Source: an uncultured Methylomirabilota bacterium
GTDB taxonomy: Bacteria > Methylomirabilota > Methylomirabilia > Methylomirabilales > 2-02-FULL-66-22
Assembly (NCBI GenBank): GCA_963845565.1
Contig: CAWJSJ010000003.1
Span: 1 to 64,000, forward strand
Reading direction: 5' to 3'
DNA length: 64,000 nucleotides
Shown here: one piece after another, positions 1-33,899 of the stretch
Position numbering within the stretch: the stretch's first letter is position 1
Layout: each line of letters opens with the position of its first letter
Position numbers and translations under genes: made by a program
The notes under the pieces: generated by a model
Seen by the model: only the letters and a program-made list of their open reading frames with translations
What the model was told of the DNA's origin: nothing
The model's database searches: none

Positions 1-1341
1 AGCTAACACCCGCGATCCGCGGCCCAGCAGCCTTTCGCCACGGCGTCACGACCGTGGGAATTGTGAACGACGTGCCCGCCAGCTCGATGTGCGGATTGAT
101 CGTCCTGAAATGGGGCTGCGGCGGAATGGCCTCATGCCGGAAACAGAGCACCGTCTTGATCAGCCCGGCGACACCCGCCGCCGCTTCGAGGTGACCGATG
201 TTGGCCTTCACCGCCCCGAGAACGCACGGTCGCCCGTCTGGACGGGGGCGACCCACACCGCCGTCAGCGCTTCGACCTCGATCGGGTCGCCGAGCGTGGT
301 GCCGGTTCCGTGCGTCTCGACGTAGCCCACGGCCTCGGGATCCACTCCGCCCGATGCGAGGGCCCGGCGCACGACCGCCTGCTGCGCGAGCCCGTTCGGC
401 GCCGTCAGCCCGTTCGTCGCGCCGTCCTGGTTGACCGCCGTGCCGCGGATCACTGCCAGGATGGGATCCCCGTCCCGGAGGGCGTCCGCGAGCCGCCTAA
501 GGACCACCAGCCCGCAGCCTTCGCCGCGCACGAACCCGTCGGCCGACGCATCGAACGTCTTGCAGCGACCGTCGGGGGCCAACATCCGCATCTTGGCGAG
601 GTGAGCCCGGTCTCCGGCGACAGGATCAGGTTCACGCCGCCGGCCAGGGCCAGGTCGCATTCGCCCGTCCGCAGGCTCTGGCAGGCCAGGTGCAGGGCGA
701 CCAGCGAGGAGGAGCAGGCGGTGTCTATGGCAACGCTCGGTCCGCGCAGGTCCAGCAGGTAGGACAGGCGGTTCGCCATGATGCTGTGCGCGCCACCGCT
801 GGCGGTGTACGTGTCGATGGTCGAGCGATCGCCGACCTGCAGCCAGTAGTAGTCGCTACTCTGGCTGTGAATCCCCACGAACACGCCCGTGGCACTGCCC
901 GCCAGCCCTTCCCCTGTCTGTCCCGCCTCCTCCAGCGCTTCCCACGCCACTTCCAGGAGCAACCGCTGCTGAGGGTCCATCTGGGAGGCTTCGCGCGGCG
1001 CGATGCCGAAGAAGCCGGCGTCGAACTCGTCTACACGATCGAGGAAACCGCCCCGAACGCGTGCCCGCCTCCGGTCCGGACGTCACCGAGGGATCTACAA
1101 CCGCGTCCGCGTCCCATCGGTCTGCCGGAACCCGACGAATCGCGTCTCGGCCCTCCGTCAACAACCGCCAGAAAGCCTCCGGCGAGTTCGCTCCGCCCGG
1201 AAACCGGCACCCCATCCCGATGATCGCGACGGGTTCCGCCCTCAACGGATGGCCGCTCTTCGGCGAACGGCCCAGACGCTGCTCCAGGAGCGCGCGCTTC
1301 TCGGGCGAGAGTCCCTCGAGTCGCCGACTGAGGTCAGCCAT
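1..1341 (-). CDS. Type I polyketide synthase, N-terminal docking region + ketosynthase domain (runs off window; frameshifted)
   Basis: Pieces in ORFs 856..1341, 450..980 and 208..660: [31 protein letters not shown], active-site [15 protein letters not shown], and KANIGH near 200-215. At least 3 frameshifts. Confidence 0.93.
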
Positions 1342-2975
1342 TTCGAGCGCCTCCTTGTCCCTCGTCCTCGGTCAAGAGACGCCGGGCCTCCGCGTCGGAC
1401 AATCCCTCCACCTCTCCTAGCAACCGCTCGAGGTCTCGCTCCTCGTCAGGGGAACGGTCCGGAAGCGACGCGGGTTCGGCGTGCGCCTCGAGGCGCTCGG
1501 CAAGATACCGGGTGATCGCCTCGATCGTCGGGTAGTTCCACACCAGGGTGGCCGGCACGGGAATCCCCAGGTCGCGCTCCAGTCCCTTGCTCAACGCCAC
1601 CGACATGACCGACGTGAGCCCGAGGGAGCGCAGCGGCCGCCGAAAGTCCGACGCCCCCAACGGGGTGCCCAACAGGTTCACGACGCGATCACGGAGCAGC
1701 GCGTCCACGCGGACGACCTGGTCGCCGGTCGAAGCCGGCCGAGGCGCATCCGCCGGTTCCCCCGCAACCGAACGACCTGCCGGCTCACAACTCAGATCCG
1801 CGCGCGCAGGGCCGCTGGCCGCGGCGAGTTGATCCACCGCGCGGGTGACGGCCTCCAGAAACTGCGCGGCCTCGACCCCGTTGATGCAGCCGGTGATCAA
1901 ACGTCAGACACAGCGCCGCAGTCCGCCCCATCCCGCTCGTACCCGGCTCGGCGGGCGCCCCGACGAAGAGCGTCGCAATCGCCGGCGCGACCAGAGTCGG
2001 CACGGCATGCGTGACTTGACTCGCGCCCAAATAGGTCAAGACCACCTGCGTCGTTTCATCTGACTGGTCCCGCCCCTCCATGGCCAAGGCGATCTTGTTT
2101 TGGACCGCACAGGCGAGCTCGGGGAATGTCATGGTGTCCGCCTGAGGAACGATGGCCGTCACGAGGTCGCCCTCGGCCCGGTGGACGGCGATCCCCAGGG
2201 TAAGGTGGGGATATACGCGGACCCGATCATCGCTGACGAGGACAGAGCGGAAGTTCGGATGCGCGCCTGCGCCTCGGGCAACGGCGTATGCGATCACCTC
2301 CAAGGGGCCGACCGGCACATCGGGATGATCGGCGCGCACGACCTGGAGGGCGCGCTCCACGCTGGTCCAGGCCAGGGGGCAGGTGATCGTGGCCGGGATG
2401 ACCAGTTGTGCGCTGCGGCGAAATCGAAACGTCAGCGCGCGCTGCTGCGCCGACAACCGGCGCTCACGATACGCGGCTCCCGTATCCTCCTCAGTCCGGG
2501 CGTGGTCGGCCAGGTACCGGTCCACATCCGCCGGCAAGAGCTTCCCCGAAGGCGCCGGGATGCGGCGCAATTGCTCATCCGAGAGTCCGAGTGTCCGCCC
2601 GTGTGCCCGGGTCCGCGGCGGGATCCGCACGACCGACGATGGAGGCGCGACCCCGGCACCGTCCGCCCCCGCCACCAGGGAGACCGCCCGAGCCGTACGG
2701 TCGGGCGCGTCGGGCACGACCGAACCTTGCGCCTCCTCGGATTCGATCCGGCCGATGACCGCCCCGATGGGCACCACGTCCCCTGCCGCTACCAACCATT
2801 CGCCCAGCCGGCCTGGCAACGCCGCCTCCACCACCACGCGCGCCTTGTCCGTCTCCATTTCGAAGATCGGCTCGTCCTTCTCCACGCGCTCCCCCGCCGC
2901 TTTCAACAGGACCACGACCAGCGCTTCTTGCAGGCCCTCTCCGAGTTGCGGCACACGGATGTCAACCAGCGCCAT
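1334..2975 (-). CDS. 2-oxoacid dehydrogenase E2 (dihydrolipoamide acyltransferase) fused to a C-terminal acyl carrier protein
   Basis: Lipoyl motif ETDKA, E3/E1-binding-like segment, catalytic TFDHRL. Removing one base near 1886 gives [14 protein letters not shown], which continues into the ACP (LGLTSVMS...[19 protein letters not shown]) of ORF 1334..1900. Confidence 0.8.
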
Positions 2976-2979
2976 CGGC

Positions 2980-5052
2980 CTACTCCAGGGTGACGCGGAT
3001 CGCGCTCAACACCCGGTCCAGGTCCGGGAGGAGAGCATATTCGAGATCCGGACAGAACGGAATATGGACGTCGGGTCGCGCCACAAGTTGCGGCGGGGAG
3101 AGCAGCAGGTCGAAGCGGTCCGGCTGCGACACCATCTCCGCGATCACCGCTTGCCCGAAACCGCACGTACGGTTGTCCTCATGGACCACCACCAGCCGAC
3201 CGGTCTTCTGGAGCGATCGCTCGATGGACGCCCAGTCGCACGGAACCAGCGTCCGGAGATCAATCACCTCGACCGACACGCCCTCCGCCGCCATCCGCTG
3301 GGCGGCCTTCTCGGCCAGTTCCATGCCGTTGCCCCAGGACACCAGCGTCACATCGTCTCCCGCCCGCCTGACCGCCGCACGCCCGAAAGGGATCGCGTCA
3401 AAGCGCTGCATGGGCATACGCACACGGCAGAGATGCTTGGGGACCAGGATGAGCGTCGGATCCTCGTCCTGGAACGACGCCCAGAACAGGCCCGCTGCGT
3501 CTTCCGGACAGCTTGGAATCGCCACCCGCAATCCGGGCGCGTGCGCCCACCAGCCATCGTTGCTCTGGCTGTGCCACATGCCGCCGGCCGGAAGATACGC
3601 CCCATACGGGGCGTAGAGCACCAGGGGACAGGTCCATTCCCCCTTCGATCGCCATCGCAAGGTCGTTGCCTGAGTGATCAACTGGTTGAAGCCGGGCCCG
3701 ATGAAATCAATGAATTGAATCTCGAAAACGGGCCGGTATCCGGCAGCGGCCAGCCCGGCCCCGACGCCGACGATCGTGCCCTCGGCGAGGGGGGAGTTGA
3801 CCACCCGTCCGGGGAACCGACTGCTCAGGCCGGCCGTGAACCCGAAGACCCCTCCCTTGGGGTCCTCGATGTCCTCGCCAAACATCAGCAGGGAGGGAAA
3901 GCGTTCGAGCGCGGCGCCGAACGTGTGATTGACGGCCGCGATCATCGTGACACCGCGCGGCGCCGAACCGACTTTCGGCGCGTCCTCTGGCGGAGACGGC
4001 AGCGATACGTGTTCGACCGTGGGACCGAAGAGGTGGTCGCCCAGACTCGCCGCGTCTGGCTTGGGTTCCGATTCGACACGTTGGTACGCCACATCCACCG
4101 CACGCCGGACATCCGCTTGCATCGCTGCCCAATCGTTGGGAGCCAATTCCCCGGACTTCACGAGTCGCTGAACGAGGCGCGGAATCGGATCCGCCACGCC
4201 GAGGGATTCGATCTCCTCCGCGGTCCGGTAGACGCGATGATCATCGGACGACGTGTGAGACGAGAGCCGGTCCAACTCGCACCACAGAATACTCGGTCCC
4301 CCGCCGATGCGCGCCTTGGCGATCGCCCGACCGCCGCACTCCAGCACTTCCGCAATATCGCGTCCGTTGATCCGCGAGACGCGATCTTCCGCGAAGATCC
4401 CCAGCCGAAAGGGCAAAAGGCGCTGCGTGGATGTGCTGATTCCGTAACCGTTGTCCTCGATGACGAAGACGATCGGAAGCTGCTCCTGCACAGCAAAGCA
4501 CACCGCTTCGTAAAACTCGCCCTGCCGCGTTGCGGCGTCGCCAAGGCAGCAGACAACGACCGGCGAGGGACCTCCCTCTCGTTGGTCATTGCGCTCCGGG
4601 TGCTGCAGCGTACCTTTCGCCGACAGGGTGATTCCCCAAGCGCAGCCTGCGGCCGGAAGACATTGAGAACCGGTGGGCGACGCGACGGAAACGACGTTGA
4701 GTTGCCTGGAGGAAAAATGAGATGGGAGGTTACGCCCCGCGGAACTCGACCCCGCGCGGGCGAAAAAGTCACGGGCAAGCAACTCGGTACTCATTCCGCG
4801 CGCCAGCATCAAGGCGCGATCCCGATAGTGGGGAAGGATCACGTCCCCTGGCACCAAGTGATACGCCAAACCGCCCAGCGCCTCGTGCCCCGCGCCGACT
4901 CAGATGAAACCACCCCTTGCCCTGTCGCAGGAGTATGCCTTCGCGCTCGTCACCGAAACGCGCCGCTAACATCCAGCGAAGCGCGTCCCGAGGCCGATTG
5001 GGCGTCGTATCGCCTGGGACTTGCACCTGGTCGGTAATTGCCCGGGGTTCAT
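2980..5052 (-). CDS. Fused 2-oxoacid dehydrogenase E1 alpha/beta (ThDP-dependent, BCKDH/PDH-like)
   Basis: GDAATRQGEFYE...NGYGIS ThDP motif, SHTSSDD, beta part GEDI..GGVF, NSPLAE, EIQFIDF, VEVIDLRTL. The N-terminus (RQGKGWFH) lies in another frame upstream of ~4890, and the probable ATG overlaps the PPTase stop. Confidence 0.9.
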
Positions 5053-5885
5053 GCAATGTATTGCTTCTCCCTCGAATCGTCAGATGCCTCGGCTCTGACC
5101 AACCCACCGAAGTCACCGTACAGGCCACCGCCTGTACTGAAGATCGAATGTGTCCCCTTCCACAACGAGCGCCGCGGCGAAGGCGGGTTCCGGTGCAAGC
5201 GCCCGTAGCGTCCAGGTCGGCTTCCCTCCGCCACCACCAAAGGACCCAGGTGTCGCGAAGACTGCCCCAAAGGCAACGACGCTTCTATCTCTTGCACAGG
5301 AAACGACAAACCTTCTCCGGTCGCCTTAATGAACGCCTCTTTACGCGTCCAGAACTCATAGAAAAGGCGCAATTTCTCGCTTGGCGTTGCCCATCCGAGT
5401 GTGACTTGTTCATGCTCCGACAAGACCCGACGCGCCATCTCGTCGAGATCATCCAAGGGACGGACGAATTCAAGATCCACCCCAACGCGTCGATCCCGCG
5501 CAAGAGCATAAAGAGCGCCGTCGCGGGAGTGAGAGACGTTGAACTCGAGCGCGCCCGCCCAGAATCCGGACAGGGCAGGTTTCCCCTTGGCATCATACCG
5601 GAACACCAAGGATGCCGGAGGCGCCCCCAGATACTCGCCGAGAATCGTGCGGAGAAGCGACCGCGCAGCGATGAACCGTCGGCGATCGCAGTCGAAGCGG
5701 AATTGCTCCGCTCGAACGCGCTCGTCGGAGGACAGTGGGCTCGCCGGGTCCTGCACCGCCTGGGGAGGTTGCCCAAGCATTGCGAACCACACGTGGACCT
5801 CGCCACTTGGCAGCAACCGCTTGGCTGAGGCGAGGTCAGAACCTGGGGCAAGCGGTGAGAGGTACGGAGAACGGTTCATTGCCAA
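5049..5885 (-). CDS. Sfp-type 4'-phosphopantetheinyl transferase
   Basis: GKP, FNVSHS, VGVDLE and FWTRKEAFIKATGEG motifs. The C-terminus is probably frameshifted near 5200. Confidence 0.92.
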   Translation of the reverse strand: MAMNRSPYLSPLAPGSDLASAKRLLPSGEVHVWFAMLGQPPQAVQDPASPLSSDERVRAEQFRFDCDRRRFIAARSLLRTILGEYLGAPPASLVFRYDAKGKPALSGFWAGALEFNVSHSRDGALYALARDRRVGVDLEFVRPLDDLDEMARRVLSEHEQVTLGWATPSEKLRLFYEFWTRKEAFIKATGEGLSFPVQEIEASLPLGQSSRHLGPLVVAEGSRPGRYGRLHRNPPSPRRSLWKGTHSIFSTGGGLYGDFGGLVRAEASDDSREKQYIA

Positions 5886-6398
5886 TCGCGCCCCAGCCTC
5901 CTTCGAGTTGGCACGACTCGACCCGGCGTGTCTTTGACCACGCTACGCGTCCCCAGGATCGCAAAACAGATTATGGACCCCGAACCAGGAAAAGGTGTTT
6001 CGTTCAACCGTACATCAACCCTAATTGGTGGGCGATTCCATAAGTTTGCGATTGGAAATCTCTCTCTTCTACAATCGAGAAAATCACCAAGGAGCGATTC
6101 CGTGCTATTGAAGATCGATTACGCACAACCGATCCGCGCCCACAGAGGGAACCCCAATTCAGACAGCGATGCGCAAGTCTTGCGGTTCCACGGAAGGCTT
6201 TGAACCGATCCACACACGTTCCTGAAGATTCTCGTCCTTCAAGCCAAGGACAGGACAGTTGATATAAGCGTAATACGAAAACCGCTATCTATCAGTTAAG
6301 ATGCATATTTCTGCTTGGCACACCTAACCGCCTGTCGCATTCGTAGCCTAACCGGTCGTGCCAGAGACAAACTACACGATTTAAGAGTCCTTTGATAA

Positions 6399-6414
6399 TG
6401 CAATCAGAAGGCCA
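6399..6414 (-). promoter_or_regulatory. Putative sigma-54 (-24/-12) promoter facing the PPTase-E1-E2-PKS operon
   Basis: Minus strand reads TGGCCTTCTGATTGCA (GG-N10-GC). An inverted repeat TGTCTT-GGG-AAGACA lies just upstream at 6423-6437, in AT-rich context. Confidence 0.45.
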
Positions 6415-7848
6415 TTCCACCATGTCTTGGGAAGACAGCGGGAGAACGTCATTCAATTGTTTCCCACATGTTGACTCACGAAGATCTACCCGTCACGGCG
6501 CAGGACAGGTTTGTTATTTGATAGTCAATCCTCTATTGTCATATTAATATGAAGCTATCGCTTAATTGTCATTGAATACGATGAATACCTCATGTGAATT
6601 CAACCATACTTCCCTCCTTGGGAAATCTGCGTAATGCATCCTCGCATGACGTATTCCCAAAACAGCTGGCTGATTGTTCAAGCACGGCGGAGAAGCCCCT
6701 GATTTGGAACTGATCGGTTTCACAAAGAACGCCGCCCCTGCACGTCCGACAGGGACGGTACCCATGAACGACCAACAACGAATCCCCGAACGCAAGTCTC
6801 GCATGGGCGGCTCCGGGTAAGTGACTCGCCGCGCGTCACTCATGTTCGTTATTCAACTCCCCGTCTCATGGTGCTCCTCGTTTCAACCCCTGAAAACGGA
6901 CTCGGACGCTGCGATGGCCATGAGCGTGACGCTGGCCTCACCAGAATCGCTCCCACTGCGAAAGTTGCGCCCGCAGGAAATCCTGCTTGGGTTGGTGACC
7001 ATTATGTCGGTCCCGTGTTGGGATGATCGATCCTCCAGGGTGCCGTCCCAACAAATCGCAATCAGGGCCACGTCGGCTGGGTTGGTCCAGAATATGGATG
7101 AGACTGGGGGCACGAGGTCCCGCGACACCCACGAGGGTAAAGACGGGAGACCGTCATTCAAAATGCCACGGTGGGTTGTTCAAGATCCCTTTTTGATCAC
7201 ATGCGACCTCTCTTCCTCGGGCAATTTTCTTGGGCCAGGAAGCAGGATGTAATCTGGAGAGAGTGCGTCTGACTTCTGAACTCTGATAAATTGATTTGCC
7301 AGTGCGCAACTATTGCAGTTGCGCCGAAATTTATCTCGATGTCATTAGTGACAATCCCTTACGCTGAGTACAACGTTCTTTGGGGGTGAGGGAAAGGCGA
7401 TCAGCGTGACACGCAGAAGCGGTTCCCCGCAGCGCATACCTGGAAGGCTACAACCAAGATAAACGGTCCCCTGTCCGCCGCCACGACATAACCGCCGGGC
7501 CCTGCAAGCGGCAACCCGACTATGGTTTTTGCGGCGCGTTTACAACTGGTCCATGTACCCGAGATGCGGCTCCACGGGAGATTGGAGCCACAACAGGCAG
7601 ACGGGCGCAGCCCGAGACTACTGTTTCGGGTTCTGTTCGAGGAAGCGCGGAGTACTTGCGCAACCTTCCCCGATCCGAGAACGGAATTGCGCGGAGAGTT
7701 TATCAGCAGGCATGGGTCGGTTCAAATTACTCCCCGAGTCCGTTCGGTGGATTGAAGCCTGGTCTGCGTTTCTTCAAGTGAAACGACGGTTCTCGGCAGA
7801 AGTATTCGATACTCGCTCTTCTGCGCTCCAGACTTATCAAGGGCCTAT

Positions 7849-8655
7849 TTAGGATGAGTTTAACGTCCTCACAATCAGCCTTAATATAATCATGAATATC
7901 GGTTCGAGAAAGAAGATCGGGGCAAGAATCGAGACTGTCGCGAGATCCAGTGCCTTATCCAACACCCAGAGTAGAATAAATCCCAACAGCCCGACCAACG
8001 ACATCATCAACCCGGCTTCCAGGGTAAGAGGTTTCCAAAAACCAGGGAGTACAAGGCTCAGGGGAATAAAGACCCCAAGGGCAGTGTAAAACACATTGGT
8101 CGGTGTGGATTCTCCGTGCAGCATCCGAGTCATTACCGGATAAAGGCTGAAGCTTAGACCCATTGCAAGCGAAAGGAGAATCCCGATTATCGTCAGGTTA
8201 CGGTTGGGATTCGTCAGGACGGCTATGATGAGGAATCCTGAAATGGAAATGATCCAAGAAGCCCATGAGATGCGTTCGCGCAAGAGGACCATGGCCAGTG
8301 CCGTGATCATCATTGGGGCGAGCCAAAAGATCGTGATGATATTTCGCACGGACATGTAATCGGTGGCGATGATGAAGGAAGCAGGCATGATCAACATCAT
8401 CACCGCTCGCAAGATTTGCAGCCCCAACCGGTTGGTGTGGATAAGCTTCATCCCTTGGAGCGGACCAAACACAAGAACCATCAGCAATAAATGTGTGCCG
8501 TATCGAACCCACACAACTTCATACAGGGAATATTCACCCGGGATATGTAGGATAACCATTTCCATCGTCGCCCATATCAGGCTTGCAAGTGCGATCAACA
8601 ATATGCCCGCCCAGGTGTGGTTCGTCGTTACTATTTTCCAAACGACCTTTGTCAT
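7849..8655 (-). CDS. DMT/EamA family inner-membrane transporter
   Basis: 268-aa highly hydrophobic ORF with EamA-like EVVWVRY, LQILRA, LLRER and RMLHGES patterns. Visibly lower GC than its flanks. Confidence 0.8.
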   Translation of the reverse strand: MTKVVWKIVTTNHTWAGILLIALASLIWATMEMVILHIPGEYSLYEVVWVRYGTHLLLMVLVFGPLQGMKLIHTNRLGLQILRAVMMLIMPASFIIATDYMSVRNIITIFWLAPMMITALAMVLLRERISWASWIISISGFLIIAVLTNPNRNLTIIGILLSLAMGLSFSLYPVMTRMLHGESTPTNVFYTALGVFIPLSLVLPGFWKPLTLEAGLMMSLVGLLGFILLWVLDKALDLATVSILAPIFFLEPIFMIILRLIVRTLNSS

Positions 8656-8799
8656 TGCTGGCCTGTCCCCAATGATCGGTTCATGTCGAGGTCAGTTCTG
8701 AGCATATCTTAGTTCCAGCTCCGATCGGAACGGCAATGCAAGCCTGGGCCAGGATCGCGCTTCGGGAGCCGGGGGCCGAAAGCCTAAGATAACGTGCGG

Positions 8800-9254
8800 T
8801 CGCACGGTGGTGCAGTGCTTCCGCCACTACTCGACGAGCACCTCGGCCCTCTTCAAGGTGTAGAGGATCTCCCGATCCGGCAGTTCATCCCACAGCGTCC
8901 GTTGAAGGAACCGTTGTTACCGTTCTCCCAGGCGCTCCTGAACTCGATGAACAGCGTCCGCACGTCGAGCCAGGCGGGCCACTACCGAACGCTCTTCGCG
9001 CAGAACGCGGGGCCGTTGTCGGAGCGCAGGTGGCCCGGGCAGCCCCGGGGTGAGGAACAAATCAGTCAAGGCCGCCAGCACATCATCCGCCGTCAGCTTC
9101 GGAGCCACCACGATCGCCAGCGCCTCCCGTGTGCACTCATCCAGGATCGTGCGCAATCGAAACGCCTTCCCGTAGTAGGGGCGATCGGTCATGACGTCAT
9201 AGGCCCACACGTGGTTCTACTCTATCCCTGGACCAATTTCCGGGGGCATGGTCA
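8800..9254 (-). mobile_element. IS3-family transposase remnant (integrase core) with a left-end-like terminus
   Basis: HVWAYD, LDECTREALAI, (H)LRSDNGP and WENG motifs broken by frameshift/stop. Terminal sequence TGACCATGCCCCCGGAAATTGGTCCAGGG at 9254-9226 is joined directly to the core (internal deletion). Confidence 0.8.
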
Positions 9255-9560
9255 GTCGCAGCCCCAGAGGGCCACCGGCCCCACGAGAACCGCTTTGCGG
9301 GACCTTCGGGATCCAGGCTAGTGGGACCTCGAGGTCATATTTGGTGTGCGGCCCACTCCGGTCGCGTGGCACGCGACCCTATTAGCACAACGAGGGACTC
9401 GTCGGAAGGCGAGGGTTCTTCACCATCCCTGACGTGGAGACGAATTGACACTCTTGGCGGTCATTGCCTCGGCTCCTGTAAGCGGCGATGCTTTGCCACC
9501 CAAAGCCTGACGAAACCTGCCCCCCTTCACCGTCGCCCTGTCGCCTGGTGTGCTCGTCGC

Positions 9561-12918
<3,358 letters not shown>

Positions 12919-12926
<8 letters not shown>

Positions 12927-14948
12927 AGAATTCCTCATTCATCCCAGGCATCGCCAGCCGCAGCAAACGATCCGCTTCGGCGTCCGAAAGGTCTTCAAGC
13001 TCACCCAGGATCCGCGTCTGCTCCTCCTGCTCCGGCATTCGCGCGACCTGGTCGGCGATCGCTGCCGCGACCTCGACCACGGTGGGGGCTTCGAAAAGGG
13101 TCCGCAAAGGCAGGTCAACCCAGAAGATCGTACGGATGCGGGAAAGAACCTGGCCTGCCAGTAAGGAATTGCCCCCAAGTTCGAAGAAGTTGCCGTGTAT
13201 TCCGACCTTATCCACGCCCAGGAGTTTGGCCCAGATAACCGCCAGGAATCTTTCCAGCGGCGTGCGCGGAGCCTCGTCGGCTACCTCGGTAGGTGTTCCT
13301 AGCGTTGCATGGTCCGCGTTCATTGAGCGGAACTGCGCAGCCAACTTGGAGCGTTCCAGTTTGCCGGTCGGGCCCTTGGGAATGCATCCACGATCAGGAT
13401 CCTGGTAGGCACCTTGAAATCGGACAGACGGGTCGCTGCGAAGGCACGGAGATCCTCGCCCGTCACGATAGCAGCTTCCTGCAAGACCACGGCTGCAGCG
13501 ATGTCCTCTCCCAGGGTGGGATGAGATACGGGAAATGCGGCGGCCTGAGCGACGGCTGGGTGGGCCAACAGAATGTCATCAACTTCACGGGGTGAAACCT
13601 TCTCGCCTCCTCGGTTGATGATCTCCTTAATGCGTCCCACAAGGAAGAGATACCCATCCGGGTCGAGGCGTCCGAGGTCGCCCGTCCGGAGCCACCCTCC
13701 CCTCACCGCACTTGAAATAGCATCCAACTCGTTTGCGTACTCGTGCATGACGCTCGGACCTCGGATCACGACTTCGCCGATGTCGCCCGCTGGAAGCGGG
13801 TTACCCGCCGCATCGACGATATCGACTTCTACCCCAGAGGCGAGACCGACCGATCCGGGCTTACGCTCCTTTGGCGGCAAGGGATTGCAGGTGATCTGAT
13901 GGGCGGCTTCAGTCATTCCGTACGCCTCGATGACAGGGGCGTCAAACACCCGTTCAAGGTCTGCCGCCACTCGGAGGGGAAGGGGGGCCGAGCACGACCG
14001 AATGAAGCGGAAGGGGCGGCGGGCGATCGTGGCTCTATGAGATTCCGCCTGCGTCAGGATGGCGTGGTGGATTGTGGGAACCGCGGAGTACCAGGTTGGG
14101 CACAACTCGTCCAGCCATGAGAAGAAGGCCGTTGTGTCGAATTTCGGTACGGAGGCCACCCCGGCACCGGTCAGAAGCGACGCCAGCATCACCATGATGC
14201 CGTGAATGTGAAACAATGGCATCACATTCAAACAGCGGTCGTCGTCATCGAGATTCAGTGCAGCGCGGAGATTTCGCGCCGATGCGCACAGGTTGACATT
14301 TGTGAGAGGTACGAGCTTCGGTTCCGAGGTTGTTCCGGAGGTATGCAGCATCAGCGCCACATCCTCGGGCTGCGCATACGTCCATGGTACCGGCGTCCCT
14401 CCTGCTTCTCCCGTGAGTGTAAAAGAGCCAGCCGCTGCGCCTAGATCAGGGACCAACTCGATGATCGGAACATTGTGGGTCTTCGCCACCGATCGTGCCG
14501 GGACATCTATTCCAACCTGGACCACAAGCGACCGTGGTTTGACGTGGGACAGATAGAAATCGCACTCGGCAGCGTGGGAGGCAGGATTGATGGGGACGCA
14601 CGTACTGCCTGCGATCGTTGCCATGAGAGCCACGGCCATTTCCGGGCCTTGGGGCAACACCAGGCCGACCCGGTCATTCCGACCGACCCCCATCTGATTG
14701 AGTGCGCGGATTGTGGCGTCGACTTGCACATGGAGATGCCCATATGTAAGTGGGATACGGCCCGGAGCAGCAATCGCGACACCCGTGGGCGCATGTTCCA
14801 CCTGCTCAATGAGGCGACGATAGACAGACAGCATAGACGAGTTCTGGTCAACGCCAGAGGAGGAGTGGAGCGTCGAGAGCATTCCCCTCGTCGTGTGTAT
14901 CGTTGAATGGCGGCCAGATGGTGCCATCTCGTTGAGAAACCCTCTCAA
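12919..14948 (-). CDS. Acyl-AMP ligase (oxalate-CoA ligase/AAE3-like) fused to a carrier (T) domain
   Basis: HTSGTT, MPLFHIHG, YSAVPTIH, RFIRSCSAPL, EAYGMTEAAHQ, INRGGEKV. A frameshift near 13380 joins the T domain FFELGGNSL (ORF 12919..13344). Start codon uncertain. Confidence 0.85.
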
Positions 14949-15003
14949 TTCGACAGACTACGTTTTGCGCCGCGGGTTATCCGGCTGGACACGCGAAGCT
15001 GGA

Positions 15004-17000
15004 TTACTCGCGAGCATGCTCGCGCGTTTCCGGTTTCGGAAACGTCAGGAGTCGGTCCGTTTCGGCATCCGAAAGCTCCTCGAGTTCCGTCAGGAGTCGT
15101 TCCCGTGCCTCGCGCTCTGGACTCCTCGCGAGACTTACGGCGATCGCCGCCGCGACCCCTTCAACGGTAGGGGTGTCGAAAAGGGTCGACAAGGGGAGGT
15201 CGACGTGAAATGCCTCGGCGACCCGGGCGATGACCTGGCTGGCTGCCAAGGAGTGTCCCCCCAATGCGAGGAAGTCGTCATGAATGCCGACCTCATCCAG
15301 GTCCAGCACCGCCGCCCAGATAGCGCATACAACGTCCTCAACCGGCGTCCGCGGAGGCACCATCGGGTCATCCAACTCGGGTCGTGCCCGCCCCGGGGCC
15401 GGAAGGGCCCCTACGCTCACTTTGCCATTCGGGGCCTTCGGCAACGAATCAAGGGGCACGAAAACAGATGGGATCATATGGTCAGGAAGCCTCATGGCCA
15501 GCGCTCGCCGGAGTGCAGTGACAGTCGGAGCGGTTTCGCCTTCGGGAACAACATACGCCACCAGACGTTGGTCGCCGGATCGACTCTTGGCCGCGACGAC
15601 GGCGGCCTCTTTGACGGTGGGAAGAACGGCGAGGGCCATCTCGACCTCTCCGGCTTCGATCCGGTGGCCTTTGATTTTCACTTGGAAGTCCGTTCGGCCT
15701 AGGTGAACAAGGCAGCCGTCTGAGAGCATCCGCCCCAGGTCGCCCGTCCGATAGATGCGCTCATCTCCACCTTGCGGGTCGGGCAGAAAAGCAGCCTGTG
15801 TGAGATCGGGCCTTCGCCAATAGCCAGGGGAGAGATAGCGGCTCTTGACGGCAATTTCACCGACTCGGCTCGCCCCATCTTCTTCCGTAGTCTCGCCGAT
15901 CAAGAGGATCTCGTTGTCCTCGACCGGGTAACCAACCGGAACGCTGTTTCCGGTTATGCGCGTTTCTTTGTCAATGAAATACCACCGGATTGTTCCAGTT
16001 TCCGTGCTTCCTAGCCTGTTCACAAGAGTGCAGTCTTCGGAAAAATACTTCTTGTAGTACGCCACGTCTTGCTTGTAAACCAATTCGCCTACCAACTTGA
16101 TCACACGAACATGGGGAAACACCGCGTTTCCGGTCAGGCTCTTACAAAAGTGCCGGAACACCGTCGGGACCGCAGAGAAAATAGTGATTTCCTGCTGCAC
16201 CAACCAATCAGGTAGGCGAGCCACGCCCTCTTCTTTGATGTTCAGCGGGAAAAGGGATGCCCCATTCAGTAAGGCGGTATAGATCTCGTGTGCCGCGGCA
16301 TTGGTGCAAAAAGAGTAGACAAGGGATAGTCTGTCGTCCGCGCAGATCTGCAGGCTGTTGGTGTAGATCCGGATGAAATGCAGCACGTTCCGATGAGTCT
16401 GGACGACCCCTTTGGGCTGCCCGGTGGAGCCCGACGTGTACAAAATCCAGGCACGAGTGTCTGGAGAAAGCGACAGGCGAGGGTTTTCGGTAGAGTGCCG
16501 AGCATCAAGGTTATCCACGTCGATCACTGCGCACCCGCCGAGCGCCATCTCACGGGCGGAGGTAAGATTTTTGTGGTCAGTGATGATGAGTGTGGCTTCG
16601 GAATCCCTCAAGATATGCTGGCACCGTGCGGTGGGATGCGAGCGATCAAGCGGCACACAGATCTTGCCGGCCTTCAAGGCACCGACCATAGCGGAAAGCA
16701 TGGGGGCGTCATGTTCCAGCAGGAGGGCAATCGGCTCCTCTGCGGTTCCGCGTTGAGCAAGGATCGCGTGCGCCAAGCGGTTGGCTGCCTCGTTGAGCCT
16801 ACCGTAGGTCAGTCCATAGTTCCTGGACCTGACGGCGAGGCGATCAGGGTGTGCAGCGACTTCCTGTTCAAACCGATACGGAATCGATCGTTCGATCTCT
16901 CCCTTTTTGAATTCACGAAAACCAGCGGTCGGACCGACGCTGTGGTGGATTCGTCGTTGCCCGGAAAAGAACGCGGTCCACTTCCCGTTTGCTCACTCAT
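15004..17000 (-). CDS. Stand-alone adenylation-thiolation (A-T) didomain
   Basis: YTSGSTGQPKG, YRTGDLG, PNGK, T domain FLALGGHSL. The N-terminus (FREFKKGEIERSIPYRFEQ) extends upstream of the ORF call to an ATG at 17000 across a frameshift near 16965. Confidence 0.88.
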
Positions 17001-17040
17001 ATCCAATTCCCGCCCTCTACAACTCTCACTCGTCGCCCTG

Positions 17041-18984
17041 TCATGTCGCGCTGTTCCCCGCGCCGTCCAGCCCTTCCAGCACCCGGGCGAGCTCGCCTTC
17101 ACCTACGCTCATCGCCAGACCCTGAACCACAACCCGAGCCAGGCCGCCGACGGTCGGCACCTCAAATACAGTGCGCGGAGGCAGCTCCACGTGAAAGGTA
17201 CTGCGAATCCGGGAAACAACCTGGATCGCGAGCAACGACTGGCCACCTAGGTCGAAAAAGTCGTCGTGAATACCGACACGCTCCAACCCGAGGACCTCGC
17301 GCCAGATGTCGGCGAGCGCGCACTCGATGGGAGTGCGAGGGGGCACGAAAGCTTCGTCCAGCACTGCCTGTGTCAGGTCAGGCGGAGGAAGCGCACGACG
17401 ATCAATCTTCCCGTAAGCGTTCAGGGGAATTGCGTCGAGGATTATGAAAGCAGAGGGAATCATGTGGAGCGGCAGGCGCCTTGCGAGGTGTCGCCGGATT
17501 TCGTCTATTGCGGGCGGAGGGCTCGCTGCCGGGACCAAGTATGCGACGAGTCTGGGCTCTGAGGATTTGCCCGGCATCGCGACTACGACAACTTCCTTGA
17601 AGACACCCAACCCGTTGAGAACCTTCTCAATCTCAGGGATCTCCACCCACTGGCCCCGAATTCGTAGCTGGAAATTGTTCCGACCCAGGTATTCTAGGCA
17701 GCCGTCCGCGTGCATACGCCCCAGGTCTCCCGTCCGATACGTTCGCTCAAGTCCGCCTTGAGGATCCGCCACGAACGCTGCTTCCGTCAAATCGGGCCTT
17801 CGCCAGTAACCAGGAGCCAGATAGCGACTTCGGACGGCAACTTCTCCAACGCAGTCGAAGGCGACCGGTTGACTGGATTCATCCAACAATAAGATCTCCA
17901 TATCCTCAACCGCATAACCAATGGGCACGATACTCTCGGGGACGGGAGTATCCTTATTGACGAAAAATTGCCGCACGATTCCGCACTCCGTTGCCCCCAG
18001 CCCGTTAACCAGGACACAAGTGTCAGGGAAATACGTCTTGTAGAGCTCTATGTCCTTGGGGCTTGCCTGATCCCCTTCCAAGCGAATAACGCGCACCGCT
18101 GGGTAGCTGTGCTTTCCGGTTGCCAAGAGTCGGAAGATCGACGGCACGGAGTGATAGATGGTTATACACTCCTGACTGACCCAGGAAGCCAACCGGTCGG
18201 GCCCTTCATGCTGCAAGCTGAAGGGAAAGGAAGTGGCCCCGTTGAGGAGCGCACAGAACAGGCTCGAAACAGAGCCGCTGAAACTCGCTGACTGCAGAAG
18301 CGTTAACCGGTCAGTAGCACAGATGCGGAGGCTGTTGGTGTAACGCATGATATTGTGGAGTACGTTGCGGTGGGTATCCGCGACCCCCTTGGGTTTCCCG
18401 GTAGAACCTGAGGTATAGAAAATGTACGCCAGCCGTTCCGGAGGGAAGGCCAAACCAGGACTCTCGGGCGAGTTGACGGCCTCCATTGTATCGACGTTGA
18501 CCACCGACACGTCTGATGGCGCGAATTCACGGGCCTGGGCGAGGTGGGTGGCATCCGTGAGGATGATGGCAGCAGTCGAATCCGCCAAAATATCGGCGTT
18601 ACGCAATGTCGGTCCTAGAGGATCCAGGGGAACGTAGATCTTGCCCGCCTTCAGGCTCCCGATAATCGAGGCAACCAGCAGCACGTTCTGCCCAAACAGC
18701 AATGCCACGGGCTCATTGCCGCCGCCACGTCTTGCCAAGATCAGGTGCGCAATTCGATTTGCCCGCGCGTCCAATTGAGCATACGTCAATGCGTCGCACG
18801 TCGTCTTGACCGCAACCCTATCCGCGAAGCGGCGGGCAAGTTGCCCGAAACGATCTGAGATTGATTGTTCGGTGTCGCCTCTTTCAAAGCGAACGAAGGC
18901 GTTCGTGGGGTGGGCCGAAGTTGCAGATCGAGAAACTGCGAGGGGCCGTGAGGAACTCCTGCCTGCCTCGCTAGTCCCAGCCAT
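17041..18984 (-). CDS. Stand-alone A-T didomain
   Basis: Intact 647-aa ORF: YTSGSTGKPKG, GLGATEC, YRTGDLG, YGKIDR, T domain FFDLGGQSL. Confidence 0.92.
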   Translation of the reverse strand: MAGTSEAGRSSSRPLAVSRSATSAHPTNAFVRFERGDTEQSISDRFGQLARRFADRVAVKTTCDALTYAQLDARANRIAHLILARRGGGNEPVALLFGQNVLLVASIIGSLKAGKIYVPLDPLGPTLRNADILADSTAAIILTDATHLAQAREFAPSDVSVVNVDTMEAVNSPESPGLAFPPERLAYIFYTSGSTGKPKGVADTHRNVLHNIMRYTNSLRICATDRLTLLQSASFSGSVSSLFCALLNGATSFPFSLQHEGPDRLASWVSQECITIYHSVPSIFRLLATGKHSYPAVRVIRLEGDQASPKDIELYKTYFPDTCVLVNGLGATECGIVRQFFVNKDTPVPESIVPIGYAVEDMEILLLDESSQPVAFDCVGEVAVRSRYLAPGYWRRPDLTEAAFVADPQGGLERTYRTGDLGRMHADGCLEYLGRNNFQLRIRGQWVEIPEIEKVLNGLGVFKEVVVVAMPGKSSEPRLVAYLVPAASPPPAIDEIRRHLARRLPLHMIPSAFIILDAIPLNAYGKIDRRALPPPDLTQAVLDEAFVPPRTPIECALADIWREVLGLERVGIHDDFFDLGGQSLLAIQVVSRIRSTFHVELPPRTVFEVPTVGGLARVVVQGLAMSVGEGELARVLEGLDGAGNSAT

Positions 18985-19356
18985 TTATTTCGTCTCCGGG
19001 TCGCTCACGGACACACCGGCTTCCGGTGACCTCTTGGACGCCGGCCGAGGGGTCCCGGGGCATGCCGCCGGTCCAGCACAGTCGCCAAGTTGTACGAGCA
19101 GAAGACACTTGAAAGACTACGCACAAAGTCTCGGCATGTCAAGCGGAGCCCTTCCGCCAAAATCTCCGTTAAACAGGGCGCGCCTGGCGCGCTTCATCCG
19201 CACCCAGACCAGCACGGTGTGTTGGAGGGCGCCCGAGGGCTCGTCACGGATGGGGCATCGCATTCCTCCGTGCGGTTCTGCACCCGTTGGGTGAACGCCC
19301 GCAAACACGAGCCACCGGCGGCCGCATGGACGGCGGGTTCACGCATGATCTACTCC

Positions 19357-19918
19357 GCCTATCGGGGCCCGCGACTGAGCGGCGGGCCACAGGCCCGCCT
19401 GTTCGAGCCGCGTGTTCGGCCGCCGCAGGCGGACGAACAGGTGGCGCTCAGCCGCGGGCCCGTTCGGACGACCGTCCGCGGTCGGCCGAACCAGCCGTTA
19501 GGCGGCGAACGGGGTAAATCGGTGGCGCTTGACCCCACGAGGCGGCAGGAGTAGGCTTCCGCCAGGTTGCCCCTCGTTCCCGTTCTCGGGCGCACGTCAC
19601 CCCCTCCGAGGTCCGAACAGTGACGGGATTGTCGTTCGCTGTGCCCAGCCCATTCACGCCGTTTTGCTTTTTGTCGGCTGCAATACCACGACACAGCACA
19701 ACGTTGCCGCAATCAACCTCTGTGTGGCCAGCATCGCGGCGGATGTGGCGGTTTCTATCGCCAGCAGTACTCCGCCCGTCGGGGGGACCTTGGGGGGCGC
19801 CGGGTGCGAGGTGGCAGAAGCCCTGTTCGGGCAGTGTCCGGCGCCGGTCGCGCCCAACCCTCCCCGGTGGAACCGAGAGGCAGAGCGCGTTGCGCGCGCC
19901 GAATCGGCGCTATTAGGC
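19357..19918 (+). repeat. Cluster of degenerate attC-like imperfect palindromes
   Basis: GCCTATC..GTTCGGC (19357-19420), GACGAAC..GTTAGGC (~19432-19503), GCACAAC..GTTCGGG (~19696-19831), GCCCAAC..ATTAGGC (19852-19918), with internal inverted stems. Confidence 0.35.
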
Positions 19919-20050
19919 AAATCACCAAAAGCTGGAGGAAAACGGTCGCGGCAGGAGAGGGCGACGGGTCCGCCATCCAACGGTGCTTGAGAATCGACGA
20001 TTACTCTTAGCGCGACAGACCTCCAGAGAGCTGTCGCCCGGGAGACTACC

Positions 20051-22000
20051 GTGACAGATTCTTCCTCGCCAGACACGCCCTTGCCGGCGCGGCAGCGCGC
20101 CATATGGGCCGGCTGCGTTCATCCCAACGGCGGCTTCGTGGAGTTCAGCCGAGACCAGATCGAGCAATCGATCCCGGCCCGCTTCGAGCAACAGGTGGAC
20201 CGATACCCTGCCCGCCTCGCGGTCAAGACCAGACAGCACGAGTGGACCTATGCTGCCTTGAACCGGAACGCCAACCGCCTGGCCCACGCCCTCCTGGAGC
20301 AACGCGGCAGTGGTGAGGAACCGGTCGCGCTGCTTCTGAGAAGCGATGCCCACTTCCTGGCCGGTGTGCTCGCTGTGTTGAAGGCCGGCAAGATCTACGC
20401 GTCCCTGCCGCCCGCCGACCCGCGCGCCCGGCTCACCGCCATGCTGGAAAATCTGCGGCCCAGCGTGATCATCACCGACAGCCATCATCGGGTGCTGGCT
20501 CAGGAACTGGCGCCTGGCGAGTGCGCCATTCTCAACATCGACGAGACGGACCCTGCCCTCCCCGACACAAACCTGGGAGTGACCATTTCACCCGATAACC
20601 GCAGTTGGATCCTTTACACTTCTGGCTCGACGGGGCAGCCCAAGGGCGTCTCCCAGAACCATCGCAACGTGCTGCACCTCATGATGAACTACACCAACGC
20701 CCTACACATTTGCCGGCACGACCGGATGACTCTCCTGCACTCTGGGTTGACGCTGGATATCTTTGGCGCCCTGCTCAATGGCGCCGCCCTTTACCCGCTG
20801 GAGATCAAGCAAGAAGGTCTGTCCGCGTTGGCGGACTGGCTGGTCCGCAATGAGATCACCATCTACCGTTCGTTCCCGACCACCTTTCGCCAGTTCACGG
20901 ACACCTTGGCAGAGAATGAGACCTTTCCCCATGTACGCGTGGTCCACCTGGGGGGTGAGACGGTCACCCGGCGAGACGTGGAGCGGTACCGCAAGCACTT
21001 CCCGCCGCACTGCATTCTGGTCAACCATCTGGGCAGCAATGAAGCAGGGGGCATGGCGACTTACTACATCGACAACAACACCGAGATCGAGGAACCGAAC
21101 GTGCCGGTGGGCTACCCGGTGCCGGACAACCAGGTCCTCCTGCTGGATCAGCACGACAGCGCAGTGGGACTCGGCGACGCTGGAGAGATTGCAGTACGGA
21201 GCCGCTTCCTTGCTTTGGGCTACTGGGGCCGGCCGGACCTGACAAAAGAGCGGTTCCTTGAAGATCCAACGGGAGGCGATGAACGCCTCTTCCTGACCGG
21301 CGACCTGGGCCGACGCCTGCCCGATGGTTGCCTGCTCCACCTGGGGCGCAAAGACTTCCAGGTGAAAGTGCGCGGCTACCGCGTGGAACTCGCTGAGATC
21401 GAAGCGGCCCTGCAAGCCATCGAGGGGATCAGCGAGGCAGCGGTGGTTGCCCGTGAGGAGGGAGAAGCTGGCATGCGCCTCGTAGCCTACGTGGCGCCGG
21501 CCAAGCCGCCCGGTCTTACCATCACCACCCTGCGGGCCGCGCTGGCAGGCACTCTGCCCGACCACATGATCCCCTCCGCGTTCGTGTTCCTGGACGCTCT
21601 ACCGGTCACCCCCAACGGGAAGGTGGACCGCCGCAGCCTGCCTGCTCCTGAGCGCCTTCGCCCCAATCTGAATGTGCCTTTCGCCGTTGCCACTACACCG
21701 GTTGAGGAGAGGCTGGCGAGGATCTGGGCCGAGGTCCTCGACCTGGAACAGGTCGGTGTCCACGACCCCTTCCTGGACCTGGGCGGCAATTCTCTGCTGG
21801 CCACCAGCGTCATCTCCCGGGTGCTGACCGCTTTTCAGGTCGAGCTTCCCCTGCGCACGCTCTTCGAATCCCCCACGGTGACGGACATGGCGCTGGCCAT
21901 TACCCAGGCATTGGTAGACAGGCTCGATCCCGGCGAAATTGAGCAGTTGCAGACAGAGTTGAAACGGCTTACGAATCCAGAGGAGGCGGCTCGGGATTAG
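20051..22000 (+). CDS. Stand-alone A-T didomain (paralogue of 15004 and 17041 genes, opposite strand)
   Basis: Intact 649-aa ORF: EQSIPARFEQQV, YTSGSTGQPKG, TGDLG, PNGKVDR, T domain FLDLGGNSL. Confidence 0.92.
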   Translation: MTDSSSPDTPLPARQRAIWAGCVHPNGGFVEFSRDQIEQSIPARFEQQVDRYPARLAVKTRQHEWTYAALNRNANRLAHALLEQRGSGEEPVALLLRSDAHFLAGVLAVLKAGKIYASLPPADPRARLTAMLENLRPSVIITDSHHRVLAQELAPGECAILNIDETDPALPDTNLGVTISPDNRSWILYTSGSTGQPKGVSQNHRNVLHLMMNYTNALHICRHDRMTLLHSGLTLDIFGALLNGAALYPLEIKQEGLSALADWLVRNEITIYRSFPTTFRQFTDTLAENETFPHVRVVHLGGETVTRRDVERYRKHFPPHCILVNHLGSNEAGGMATYYIDNNTEIEEPNVPVGYPVPDNQVLLLDQHDSAVGLGDAGEIAVRSRFLALGYWGRPDLTKERFLEDPTGGDERLFLTGDLGRRLPDGCLLHLGRKDFQVKVRGYRVELAEIEAALQAIEGISEAAVVAREEGEAGMRLVAYVAPAKPPGLTITTLRAALAGTLPDHMIPSAFVFLDALPVTPNGKVDRRSLPAPERLRPNLNVPFAVATTPVEERLARIWAEVLDLEQVGVHDPFLDLGGNSLLATSVISRVLTAFQVELPLRTLFESPTVTDMALAITQALVDRLDPGEIEQLQTELKRLTNPEEAARD

Positions 22001-22320: not shown

Positions 22321-22627
22321 AGTAAAGGGTGTTGAAGGGCTCCTGTCAGCCGCAAAACGATTCGCCGCAAGTGGGCCACGACCATCCCCGCCGTATTGAA
22401 CAGCAGGAAACGCAGCCGCTTCGGCCGGGCGGTCCGGAGGTCTCCGGGTAACGCCAGCCGCTCGAGCGAGGGGACGAGGGGAGCAGTCGTAGATGCGTGC
22501 GTTCACGGAGAACTAGGCGGGGTTCGTCTCGAAACTCCAGCTCAGGAGGGCGGCGGTCGCCAGTTCGTTCTTTTTGACACGGCGGCAAGGGATCTCCCCC
22601 TTGCCGCCGTGGTCTTTGAGGGAGGAT

Positions 22628-25600: not shown

Positions 25601-26111
25601 CGCAGGTGATGCCGCTCGGGCTGGAGTCCACGGTGCCGGTCCCGGTGCCGCTTTTGGCCACGGTCAGGGTCCGGACCACGGGGGTCGGGGCGACCGCACA
25701 GGCCTCCGGAGTGTATGGGGAATCCCCCACGGTGTTGTAGGCCCGGACCCGGTAGCAGTACGTCGTTCCCGCGGTCAGGGTGGTATCGATATAGGACATG
25801 ACCGTGGCGCCCGTGCTGGCCACCTGCGCGAAGGCCCCGGTGGTCCCCGTCTTCCGCTCCACCTTGAACCCGGTATGATCGTCCGGCGTGGCGTCGCTCC
25901 AGCTGGCGGTGAGCTGGGCCGCGTGGGCGGGGGTACTGCCGAGCACAAGGACGAGACCCAGGGCGGCGAACGCCGCGACCGCCAGGACGCGAGATCGTCG
26001 GAAACACGGGCTGGTGAACTGCCAAGAACTCGCTTTCAAGTGCATGCGACTTCTCCTCATCGTGCTGTATTTCTGGAAAAGAAATCCAGAGAGAATGTAG
26101 AGTGAATGCAT
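22628..26111 (-). CDS. Large secreted/surface protein: signal peptide, FN3-like domain, ~7 InlB-B-repeat-like (bacterial repeat) domains and 2 LamG/ConA-like domains (many frameshifts)
   Basis: Repeats LTVTKAGTGTGTVTSSP.GI.CGSTCSA.Y..GTSVTLTA....GSTFTGWSGAC.GTG.C. LamG motifs LVAAYSF.EG.G, AWVYPT, WSHLA.TYDG, F.GRIDEVRIYNR. Start codon uncertain (26111-26045). Confidence 0.82.
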
Positions 26112-26149
26112 CGAAATTCAGACCTCAAAGAAAAACCGTTTATGGTGTA

Positions 26150-26166
26150 CGCAATTTTTGCGCCCA
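26150..26166 (-). promoter_or_regulatory. Putative sigma-54 promoter for the surface-protein gene
   Basis: Minus strand reads TGGGCGCAAAAATTGCG (GG-N10-GC with TTGC). Confidence 0.55.
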
Positions 26167-26633
26167 ACTTCGAATACATGACGATGTCTTTATTTAATGG
26201 ATGTTACGAGTACTACGAGGATTCGGATGGGGAAGACTTGTCGAATCTACCGATCGAAATGACAGGGGCTTCCTGACAGAGTGCAACACGAAAAGTCGAA
26301 GTGTAATGTGAGTGGTCAACTTGGGCGCGAACCCCCTGAGTCGATGGTTGTCGTACGGTCAAGGATGAGCGCTGAAACGGGAGCCATATGGGAAGGTTGG
26401 GTAGCAGATACGGACGGAAGGAATGCGAGCCAGCTTTGGCCACTCATTGCTCATCGAGAGAATGGGCCTGAAGACCAGTGGAATGTCCGATAAGTTTACA
26501 CCCATGGACACTTCAAAGAGGTCAGAAAATCGCCTCTTGAATTTATGAACTGATTTTTCTATGTTAATACACATATATAATTCAAATAGTTACATTACAT
26601 ATCTGTTCAAATGATGCTCTCGAATGTCTAGAA

Positions 26634-26649
26634 TGGAATAATTAATGCA
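26634..26649 (+). promoter_or_regulatory. Putative sigma-54 promoter for the PEP-CTERM gene
   Basis: TGGAATAATTAATGCA (GG-N10-GC) about 65 bp before the ATG. A TGT-N11-ACA motif (TGTCCGATAAGTTTACA) lies at 26484-26500. Confidence 0.5.
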
Positions 26650-26715
26650 ATTTTTTCATCAGGTAATTGGATTCTCAGAGTAGACTTTTCTGGGAACCGT
26701 GAAGGAGGAAGGAAA

Positions 26716-27381
26716 ATGAGTAAGGCGCTGTGGGGAATTGCTGCGGTGGTTCTTTCGATAGGTTTCCTGGTGATTCCTGCTAATGCATTGTATTCGCAAA
26801 CAATAACGATATCCGGTTGCGAGAGTTGCTTTGGGTCGATCTATACCCTGACCGTTTCTGAGGTTGGTAGATGGCTTATACGAAGCGCTCCTCAGTATTG
26901 ACACGAAAGACTATATAGCACCCAAGACGGGTGCGGATTTCATCAGCGCCGTAGACTTCAAGGTGTCTTCTGACGTCGAGAATATCAGTTCCAGGGTCAA
27001 CACCAGTTCCACGAACGCCCTTAGAGGTTCCCCGGATTCTGACGGCTGGATACGCTTCCCAAACACGGAATTTCCAATGCCGGCTGTGCGACCGGCGGGT
27101 CGGGGTTCGTGTGCGCCCAAGATTCAAGCCCAAGCGTATCCGCTATTGCTGATAAGACCTATAAATGGTCGTGGACGTTTGAATTGGCAGGCTCCACGCT
27201 CTTTCCGGATCTTGCGGGCGCCCATATCGGGGCTAAATACAACAACGCGTTGGGCACGCTGAACGGCGTGATCACTTCCGCGGAAGCAGCCCCCGTCCCC
27301 GAGCCCGGCACACTGCTCCTTCTCGGCTCTGGTCTCGTGGGGTTGGCGGGAATCGCTTGGAAGCGGAATCGGCGCGAGTAG
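26716..27381 (+). CDS. PEP-CTERM sorting-domain surface protein (frameshifted)
   Basis: RBS AAGGAGG, signal peptide MSKALWGIAAVVLSIGFLVIPANA, C-terminal VPEPGTLLLLGSGLVGLAGIAWKRNRRE. Split over three ORFs. Confidence 0.88.
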
Positions 27382-27413
27382 TCAACGGGTCGGCATCAAC
27401 CAAGTCTATGTCC

Positions 27414-27772: not shown

Positions 27773-27774
27773 TC

Positions 27775-33898: not shown

Positions 33899-33899
33899 G

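Follow-up and report, generated by a model that had tools for sequence, protein, structure and literature searches.

A free lipoyl-E2-ACP protein as a candidate acyltransferase-free loading module for a modular polyketide synthase in an uncultured Methylomirabilota bacterium

Decarboxylation of a 2-oxoacid and acylation of a lipoyl arm by the E1 and E2 components of 2-oxoacid dehydrogenases are established chemistry. Here, we analyze positions 1 to 64,000 of contig CAWJSJ010000003.1 from an uncultured Methylomirabilota bacterium (‘the window’), which opens with an operon encoding a fused E1, a lipoyl-E2 joined to an acyl carrier protein (ACP), and the ketosynthase (KS) of a polyketide synthase (PKS). 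The concept of a dehydrogenase-type start has precedent in three kinds of system. (i) For virginiamycin and pristinamycin, a BCDH-ACP start is known: PMC10006238 has a Fig. 1 key listing ‘BCDH, ACP, KS’, although BCDH was not found in five supplement files of that paper. (ii) For ripostatin, a pyruvate-dehydrogenase-like complex is described, in the excerpt of PMC5490192, as decarboxylating a 2-oxoacid, in that case phenylpyruvate, and leaving the acyl product attached to a carrier protein, as the window module would also do. (iii) In QncN/QncL/QncM and SclQ1-4, a thiamine diphosphate (ThDP) enzyme, a lipoyl domain, and an E2 core deliver a glycolyl unit to an ACP (excerpt of PMC6335953). Compared by description rather than by sequence, the Qnc and Scl systems use a ketose donor, a free-standing ACP, and a nonribosomal peptide synthetase (NRPS) acceptor, whereas the window has a fused E1 alpha/beta and an E2-ACP fusion. 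The literature searched, with most subscription journals outside it, holds no description of a stand-alone E2-ACP or of the class as such, and the term ‘lipoyl’ does not occur in PMC11350588, PMC9177418, or PMC7930024.

The operon lies on the minus strand and is tightly packed. It comprises, in order, an Sfp/HetI-type 4'-phosphopantetheinyl transferase (PPTase; 5113-5885; Pfam ACPS and AASDHPPT_N), a fused E1 alpha/beta of the branched-chain 2-oxoacid dehydrogenase type (2980-5055, start approximate; Pfam E1_dh, Transket_pyr, and Transketolase_C), a lipoyl-E2 open reading frame (ORF; 2975-1887 as read in the assembly), an ACP piece (ORF 1885-1334; Pfam PP-binding), and the first PKS subunit (1-1341). 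The E1 stop and the E2 start are spaced by 4 nt, and the ACP stop overlaps the KS start; these frames and spacings, together with the Pfam domains, confirm the single tight operon proposed in an earlier sequence-only reading. That reading had also placed an extra base near 1886, between the E2 catalytic motif and the ACP, and had predicted one lipoyl-E2-ACP protein. An intact homologue, P0137 (549 residues), locates the base exactly at 1886, within the motif DHRL/ING (the slash marks the break): residues 1-366 match 2975-1887 (93%) and residues 367-549 match 1885-1337 (90%). Since P0137 matches both pieces with no residue lost, the break amounts to one extra base, a probable assembly error. 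A relative's contig spanning 1763-1949 shows one gap across 1886, the E2-ACP junction is read through in frame at nine of nine related loci, and all 11 closest relatives are fused. Thus, the single protein stands as predicted.

Rejoined, the window protein is a free 546-residue lipoyl-E2-ACP that retains lipoyl Lys44, Thr314, His361, and the ACP Ser. Its lipoyl domain (2745-2963; Pfam Biotin_lipoyl, E 7e-13) carries Lys44 in ETDKA (codon at 2846), and the D-K-A motif and the ACP Ser are invariant in the alignment of relatives. A conserved 50-residue segment (2490-2639) is a divergent peripheral subunit-binding domain (PSBD, for E1/E3 docking): its top nine matches among 48,161 chains are all PSBDs, with Z scores (4.6-6.2) that are modest for a 50-residue helical domain, and weak profile matches reach 2pdd, 1ebd, and 1w85 (E about 0.016). 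It was the fold comparison that settled this assignment; the local E3-binding profile missed even the genome's own E2s, and the Pfam E3-binding family is not among 25 of the 31 families listed for 62 proteins. TAL-repeat matches were rejected as summed weak repeats. The E2 acyltransferase core (1820-2468; Pfam 2-oxoacid_dh), which the extra base interrupts, has Thr314 (2036), His361 (1895), and an Asn for the usual Asp, and in the predicted structure of P0137 (mean pLDDT 85), the core matches known E2 cores with Z 25 and a root-mean-square deviation of 2.4 over 195 residues. With a DKA lysine, a PSBD, and a core bearing His, Ser/Thr, and Asn, the protein has the makings of an E2. All 102 carrier-fused cores retain the catalytic His (treated in PMC5986005), 93 have Ser/Thr, and 95 have Asn; an Asn at the Asp site is already known from Azotobacter E2p, according to the title of PDB entry 1dpb.

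The ACP is type I PKS-like (1502-1696; Pfam PP-binding, E 2e-11), with its Ser in LGLTS (codon at 1612), and is followed by a docking-like tail (1334-1468; L-S-x-x-E-A-x-x-L) that forms two helices in the P0137 model and is conserved in fused relatives. The PKS subunit begins with a docking-like helix (LSPEKRALL), for which the best solved profile match is the CurL N-terminus (E 1.8e-4), and continues into an elongating KS (Pfam) with Cys and both His present. We infer that tail and helix form a docking pair; a complex prediction with two copies of each scored 0.23 against a mark of 0.32, unlike the calibration, and weighs neither for nor against such a pair.

The strongest evidence for a starter-loading role comes from a profile search for relatives of this protein. 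The sequence-only reading had suggested searching for the architecture lipoyl plus 2-oxoacid_dh plus PP-binding, and many such proteins exist. Among the non-self matches listed, 29 of 119 carry PP-binding, including the 11 best. Within the best 150 representatives, 63 have a carrier domain behind E2 (41 E2-ACP, 18 E2-ACP-KS, two E2-ACP-C, one E1-E2-ACP, and one E2-KS whose ACP was found by Pfam only); the others are 73 E2 alone (some of them fragments), four E1-E2, and 10 without E2. When 20 long proteins were scanned, the lipoyl-E2-carrier unit was found to open a PKS or NRPS polypeptide in 19: 17 start lipoyl-E2-ACP-KS and two start lipoyl-E2-PCP-C (PCP, peptidyl carrier protein; C, condensation domain), the remaining one being E1-lipoyl-E2-ACP. 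None of the 17 E2-ACP-KS proteins has a loading acyltransferase (AT) between ACP and KS, and the active Cys is kept in 20 of 20 KS domains after E2-ACP, so these first KS domains need an acyl starter. A KSQ-type loading module was rejected: the window KS reads DTACSSSL, with Cys rather than Gln, as do the relatives in keeping Cys. A starter-loading role, proposed in the sequence-only reading, is thus well supported by domain order (19 of 20 relatives) and KS active sites, while the direct transfer from lipoyl to phosphopantetheine that went with it is retained here only as a proposed step.

Metagenome loci give a similar picture. Ten of 80 are fused, and KS lies directly downstream in six of these (four distinct, as L017 and L018 are one locus and L066 is 91% alike), PPTase in one, and ACP at a cut end in one. 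The PKSs downstream of E2-ACP in L016 and L018 are cis-AT, and type II thioesterase genes lie upstream of E2-ACP in L016 and L017. No ACP, KS, or PPTase was found at the 73 unfused loci within the DNA fetched (1.2-21 kb), and the fusion therefore withstood a search for homologues encoding E2 and ACP apart. Among the named organisms with the fusion are Streptomyces, Kitasatospora, Nocardia, Halomonas, Xenorhabdus, and Photorhabdus, as well as a Terriglobia and an Anaerolineales genome. A single-protein scan of genome contigs returned three loci, all unfused. In a 190-row tree (rows dereplicated at 75%), all 70 fused rows fall within one 81-row subtree (SH 86). The first KS carries an unusual motif, G(I/L)HSQS(S/A)DY, in the window (700-900), L012, L016, L018, and L066, which is not found in the second KS and may reflect the starter. 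Two NRPS proteins (P0150 and P0162) start lipoyl-E2-PCP-C and are candidates for peptide N-acylation directly from a 2-oxoacid.

The closest described relatives of the arrangement are found in Streptomyces. In a set of 72,556 records, six Streptomyces plasmids match P0137 across some 90% of it, and in the two that were opened (S. virginiae NZ_CP107872.1 and S. xanthii NZ_CP061282.1), an E1 gene annotated ‘alpha-ketoacid dehydrogenase subunit alpha/beta’ directly precedes a 5,000-residue megasynthase that starts lipoyl-PSBD-E2-ACP-KS. In S. virginiae, the next genes in the cluster are an HMG-CoA synthase cassette, a discrete AT, PPTase, and ABC-F genes. From the organism, gene content, and module order, both clusters appear to be those of streptogramin A (virginiamycin M/pristinamycin II), the plasmid records naming no product. 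Shared with the window are a fused E1 alpha/beta directly upstream (52% identical), the order lipoyl-PSBD-E2-ACP before a Cys-KS (E2 33-37% identical), and no loading AT. However, in the streptogramin A system the unit is joined covalently to a trans-AT PKS/NRPS, whereas the window unit is free, with a docking-like tail and a stop at 1334, and its close relatives feed cis-AT PKSs. Moreover, the streptogramin E2 cores form a separate 100/99 clade and read DHT where the window reads DHR. To judge from these sequences, the window module is not a member of the streptogramin type, either by fusion state or by E2 clade, but by analogy it would work like the dehydrogenase-type loading of streptogramin A and ripostatin. 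In P0213, P0231, and P0248 (from Halomonas piscis, Xenorhabdus bovienii, and Streptomyces, i.e., two outside actinomycetes), the order E2-ACP-KS-KR-(MT)-ACP-KS-DH-KR-ACP-C-A resembles the first streptogramin A subunit.

The window E1 is of the branched-chain type. It has the motifs GDAA..EFYEA..DN (with the ThDP motif present), SHTSSDD, and HSQS, and the intact E1 of L016, which is 68% identical to it, has Thermus 1UM9 as its closest solved structure. At the branched-chain E1 pocket positions, which we take to be F66, Y95, M128, and H131, the homologue reads F, Y, M, H and the window F, Y, L, H. The NCBIfam pyruvate dehydrogenase E1 equivalog cut-offs are missed (201 bits vs. 454; 152 vs. 411), in a test in which the window E1 lacked its first ~45 residues and which the intact L016 E1 fails too. 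The genome's housekeeping E1/E2 clusters are separate, with E1s only 32-36% identical to the window E1, which joins the streptogramin-cluster E1 in a 100/100 clade apart from them. With the branched-chain dehydrogenase (1UM9) and the unfused sisters, the window module has in common the E1 fold and motifs and the E2 domains, but it differs in that the acyl acceptor is fused to E2 and the operon has no E3. A branched-chain 2-oxoacid, giving isobutyryl, isovaleryl, or 2-methylbutyryl, is somewhat favored as the substrate; a phenylpyruvate-type acid is distinctly less probable, and pyruvate or 2-oxobutyrate on the one hand, or some other acid on the other, would each be a surprise. The unfused E1/E2 sisters adjoin RpfF in 11 of 73 loci (L062, L063, L064, L069, L070, L072, L073, L076, L077, L079, and L086), FabZ in 13, FadE in seven, and PrpD in five, with many near-copies among them, and those adjoining RpfF are often accompanied by sensor kinases, FabZ, and ETF genes. 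Many RpfF signals are iso-branched fatty acids, and the RpfF-linked sisters are possibly a dedicated branched-primer supply for diffusible signal factor.

In general terms, the proposed reaction can be divided into three stages. (i) Priming and charging: PPTase would prime the ACP Ser, and the ThDP-dependent E1 would decarboxylate a hydrophobic 2-oxoacid and acylate lipoyl-Lys44, the residues for which are present. (ii) Transfer: the E2 core would transfer the acyl group on dihydrolipoamide to the tethered ACP's phosphopantetheine, which would mimic the CoA arm, perhaps at a site within the E2 trimer that belongs to a neighboring subunit. (iii) Delivery and reset: the ACP, whose place ahead of the KS the fusions show, would dock on the first KS and hand over the starter, and a housekeeping E3 would re-oxidize the lipoyl arm via the PSBD. 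A domain scan found no E3-family domain within the window, in agreement with the sequence-only reading; four PF02852 matches occur in the genome, none on the window's contig. An E3 with a CxxxxC motif adjoins LipA (C1:535472-538339), which, together with the PSBD, supports that reading's suggestion of an E3 borrowed from primary metabolism. A gene at C5:992742 appears LipB-like from its motifs. Overall, that E1/E2-ACP is an AT-free loading module for a modular PKS is, in our estimate, probable.

Several observations weigh against this reading. Position 1 of the window is the start of the contig, so the PKS gene is cut off there, and further type I PKS domains were not found elsewhere in the assembly. 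The fused loci L019 and L020 have no PKS nearby and their Ser/Thr site is Asn, which means that fusion does not always make an active loader; the two fit a degenerate or diverted branch (L019:7158-12316 has a convergent class I/II aminotransferase; L020:4598-6268 has no E1 and a transposase-like remnant upstream). In a hand-picked 46-row tree, the fusion needs two changes, although at p-AU 0.07 a single origin is not rejected. The operon (5.9 kb) carries at least six indels. Only five weakly diagnostic columns separate carrier-fused from free E2 cores (68 vs. 104 rows); with no clear signature, nothing indicates a loss of CoA use. Finally, for pristinamycin II, a review says that SnaE1 loads isobutyryl-CoA, followed by two malonyl units and glycine (excerpt of PMC6963833). 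The last two points speak for a route in which E1/E2 release acyl-CoA and the tethered ACP is loaded afterwards (by self-acylation, by an acyltransferase in trans, or by E2 running backwards), as does the proposal that PglB/C yield phenylacetyl-CoA in a biosynthetic gene cluster (excerpt of PMC7089894). However, the missing loading AT in all 17 E2-ACP-KS proteins argues against release, a tether would gain little if the acyl group were released, and the ripostatin complex is reported to retain phenylacetyl-S-carrier protein (excerpt of PMC5490192), making this route an unlikely one. The Qnc and Scl clusters, which use the same enzyme classes to deliver a unit to an ACP, raise the idea of a transketolase-like route from a ketose phosphate donor to a glycolyl unit. 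Their fusion pattern is different (in Qnc, E1beta-lipoyl-E2 with a free ACP) and the window E1 is nearest to branched-chain E1s and groups with that of the streptogramin clusters, which leaves such a route highly improbable.

The indels bear on two further explanations. The module could be genuine in relatives while the copy in this genome alone is a decayed pseudogene cluster, which would accommodate the indels, the integrase remnant in the low-GC stretch upstream, and the failure to find the E2-ACP module in the 250 other phylum genomes that were searched, many of them incomplete. Besides the break at 1886, frameshifts affect the PPTase (near 5241-5270, so that its 3' end at ~5113 is a reading of the shifted frame), the E1 N-terminus (near 4896-4904, its N-terminal piece sitting in another frame), and the KS (near 255, 598, and 1055), all beyond the account given in the sequence-only reading. 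Against public contigs of relatives, rather than reads of the window's own genome, one-base indels are seen at 255, 598, 1055, 4896-4904, and 5241; position 1886 is not among the 12 rows listed (of 21), and the RNA-library contigs among these are no evidence of transcription. A codon-model frameshift caller, crude in that it missed some known indels and made false calls, returned 1,254 calls across 539 bins of 10 kb, reaching 42 per 10 kb at hot spots in genes unrelated to the operon (by eye, a CO dehydrogenase/acetyl-CoA synthase-like region, an ABC transporter, and an efflux pump). Since the PPTase, E1, KS, and unrelated genes are all affected, sequencing error is the likelier cause; the lesions seen are all small indels with no in-frame stop in the aligned pieces, and identity to the intact P0137 is high. 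We therefore attribute the operon's indels to assembly error with considerable confidence and consider decay improbable. A genuine separation of E2 and ACP into two proteins, or their joining via a programmed frameshift, would suit the two ORFs of the assembly, but a break within the catalytic motif would cost the core its last helix, and P0137, the nine in-frame junctions, and the unfused loci without an ACP contradict it, so that this possibility is close to nil.

Beyond the operon, a low-GC stretch (5900-9500; 54% vs. 66%) with an EamA transporter (7849-8655) and the integrase remnant (8920-9216) separates it from NRPS-like genes. These make up a second assembly-line region (9564-22000), with a heavily frameshifted C-A-PCP gene (9564-12922; A, adenylation domain), A and PCP at 12922-14957, and three A-PCP didomains (15007-16992 and 17044-18984 on the minus strand, 19991-21997 on the plus strand). 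Farther along (22600-36000) are a frameshifted LamG/InlB-repeat/fn3 surface protein, a PEP-CTERM protein, a GT2 glycosyltransferase, a penicillin-binding protein, and several toxin-antitoxin genes.

It is an even call whether lipoyl-PSBD-E2-ACP constitutes a general CoA-free class of loading module that recurs in several settings: on its own as a docking subunit, at the N-terminus of cis-AT PKSs, trans-AT PKSs, and NRPSs, and within an E1-E2-ACP fusion. In that case, the streptogramin A starter would pass from 2-oxoisovalerate to the ACP and never exist as isobutyryl-CoA. For genome mining, the rule would be that lipoyl plus 2-oxoacid_dh plus PP-binding before a KS or C domain means a 2-oxoacid-derived starter, in proteins often annotated merely as ‘PDH E2’. 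E2 cores form trimers and KSs are dimeric, and a trimeric core that feeds, or is fused to, a dimeric KS poses a structural puzzle. What gives the finding its value is how broad the family is, together with a protein small enough for testing direct transfer: the stand-alone E2-ACP would be a portable AT-free loading part and would allow an easy assay of lipoyl-to-ACP transfer, with a bearing on the priming of virginiamycin and pristinamycin II.

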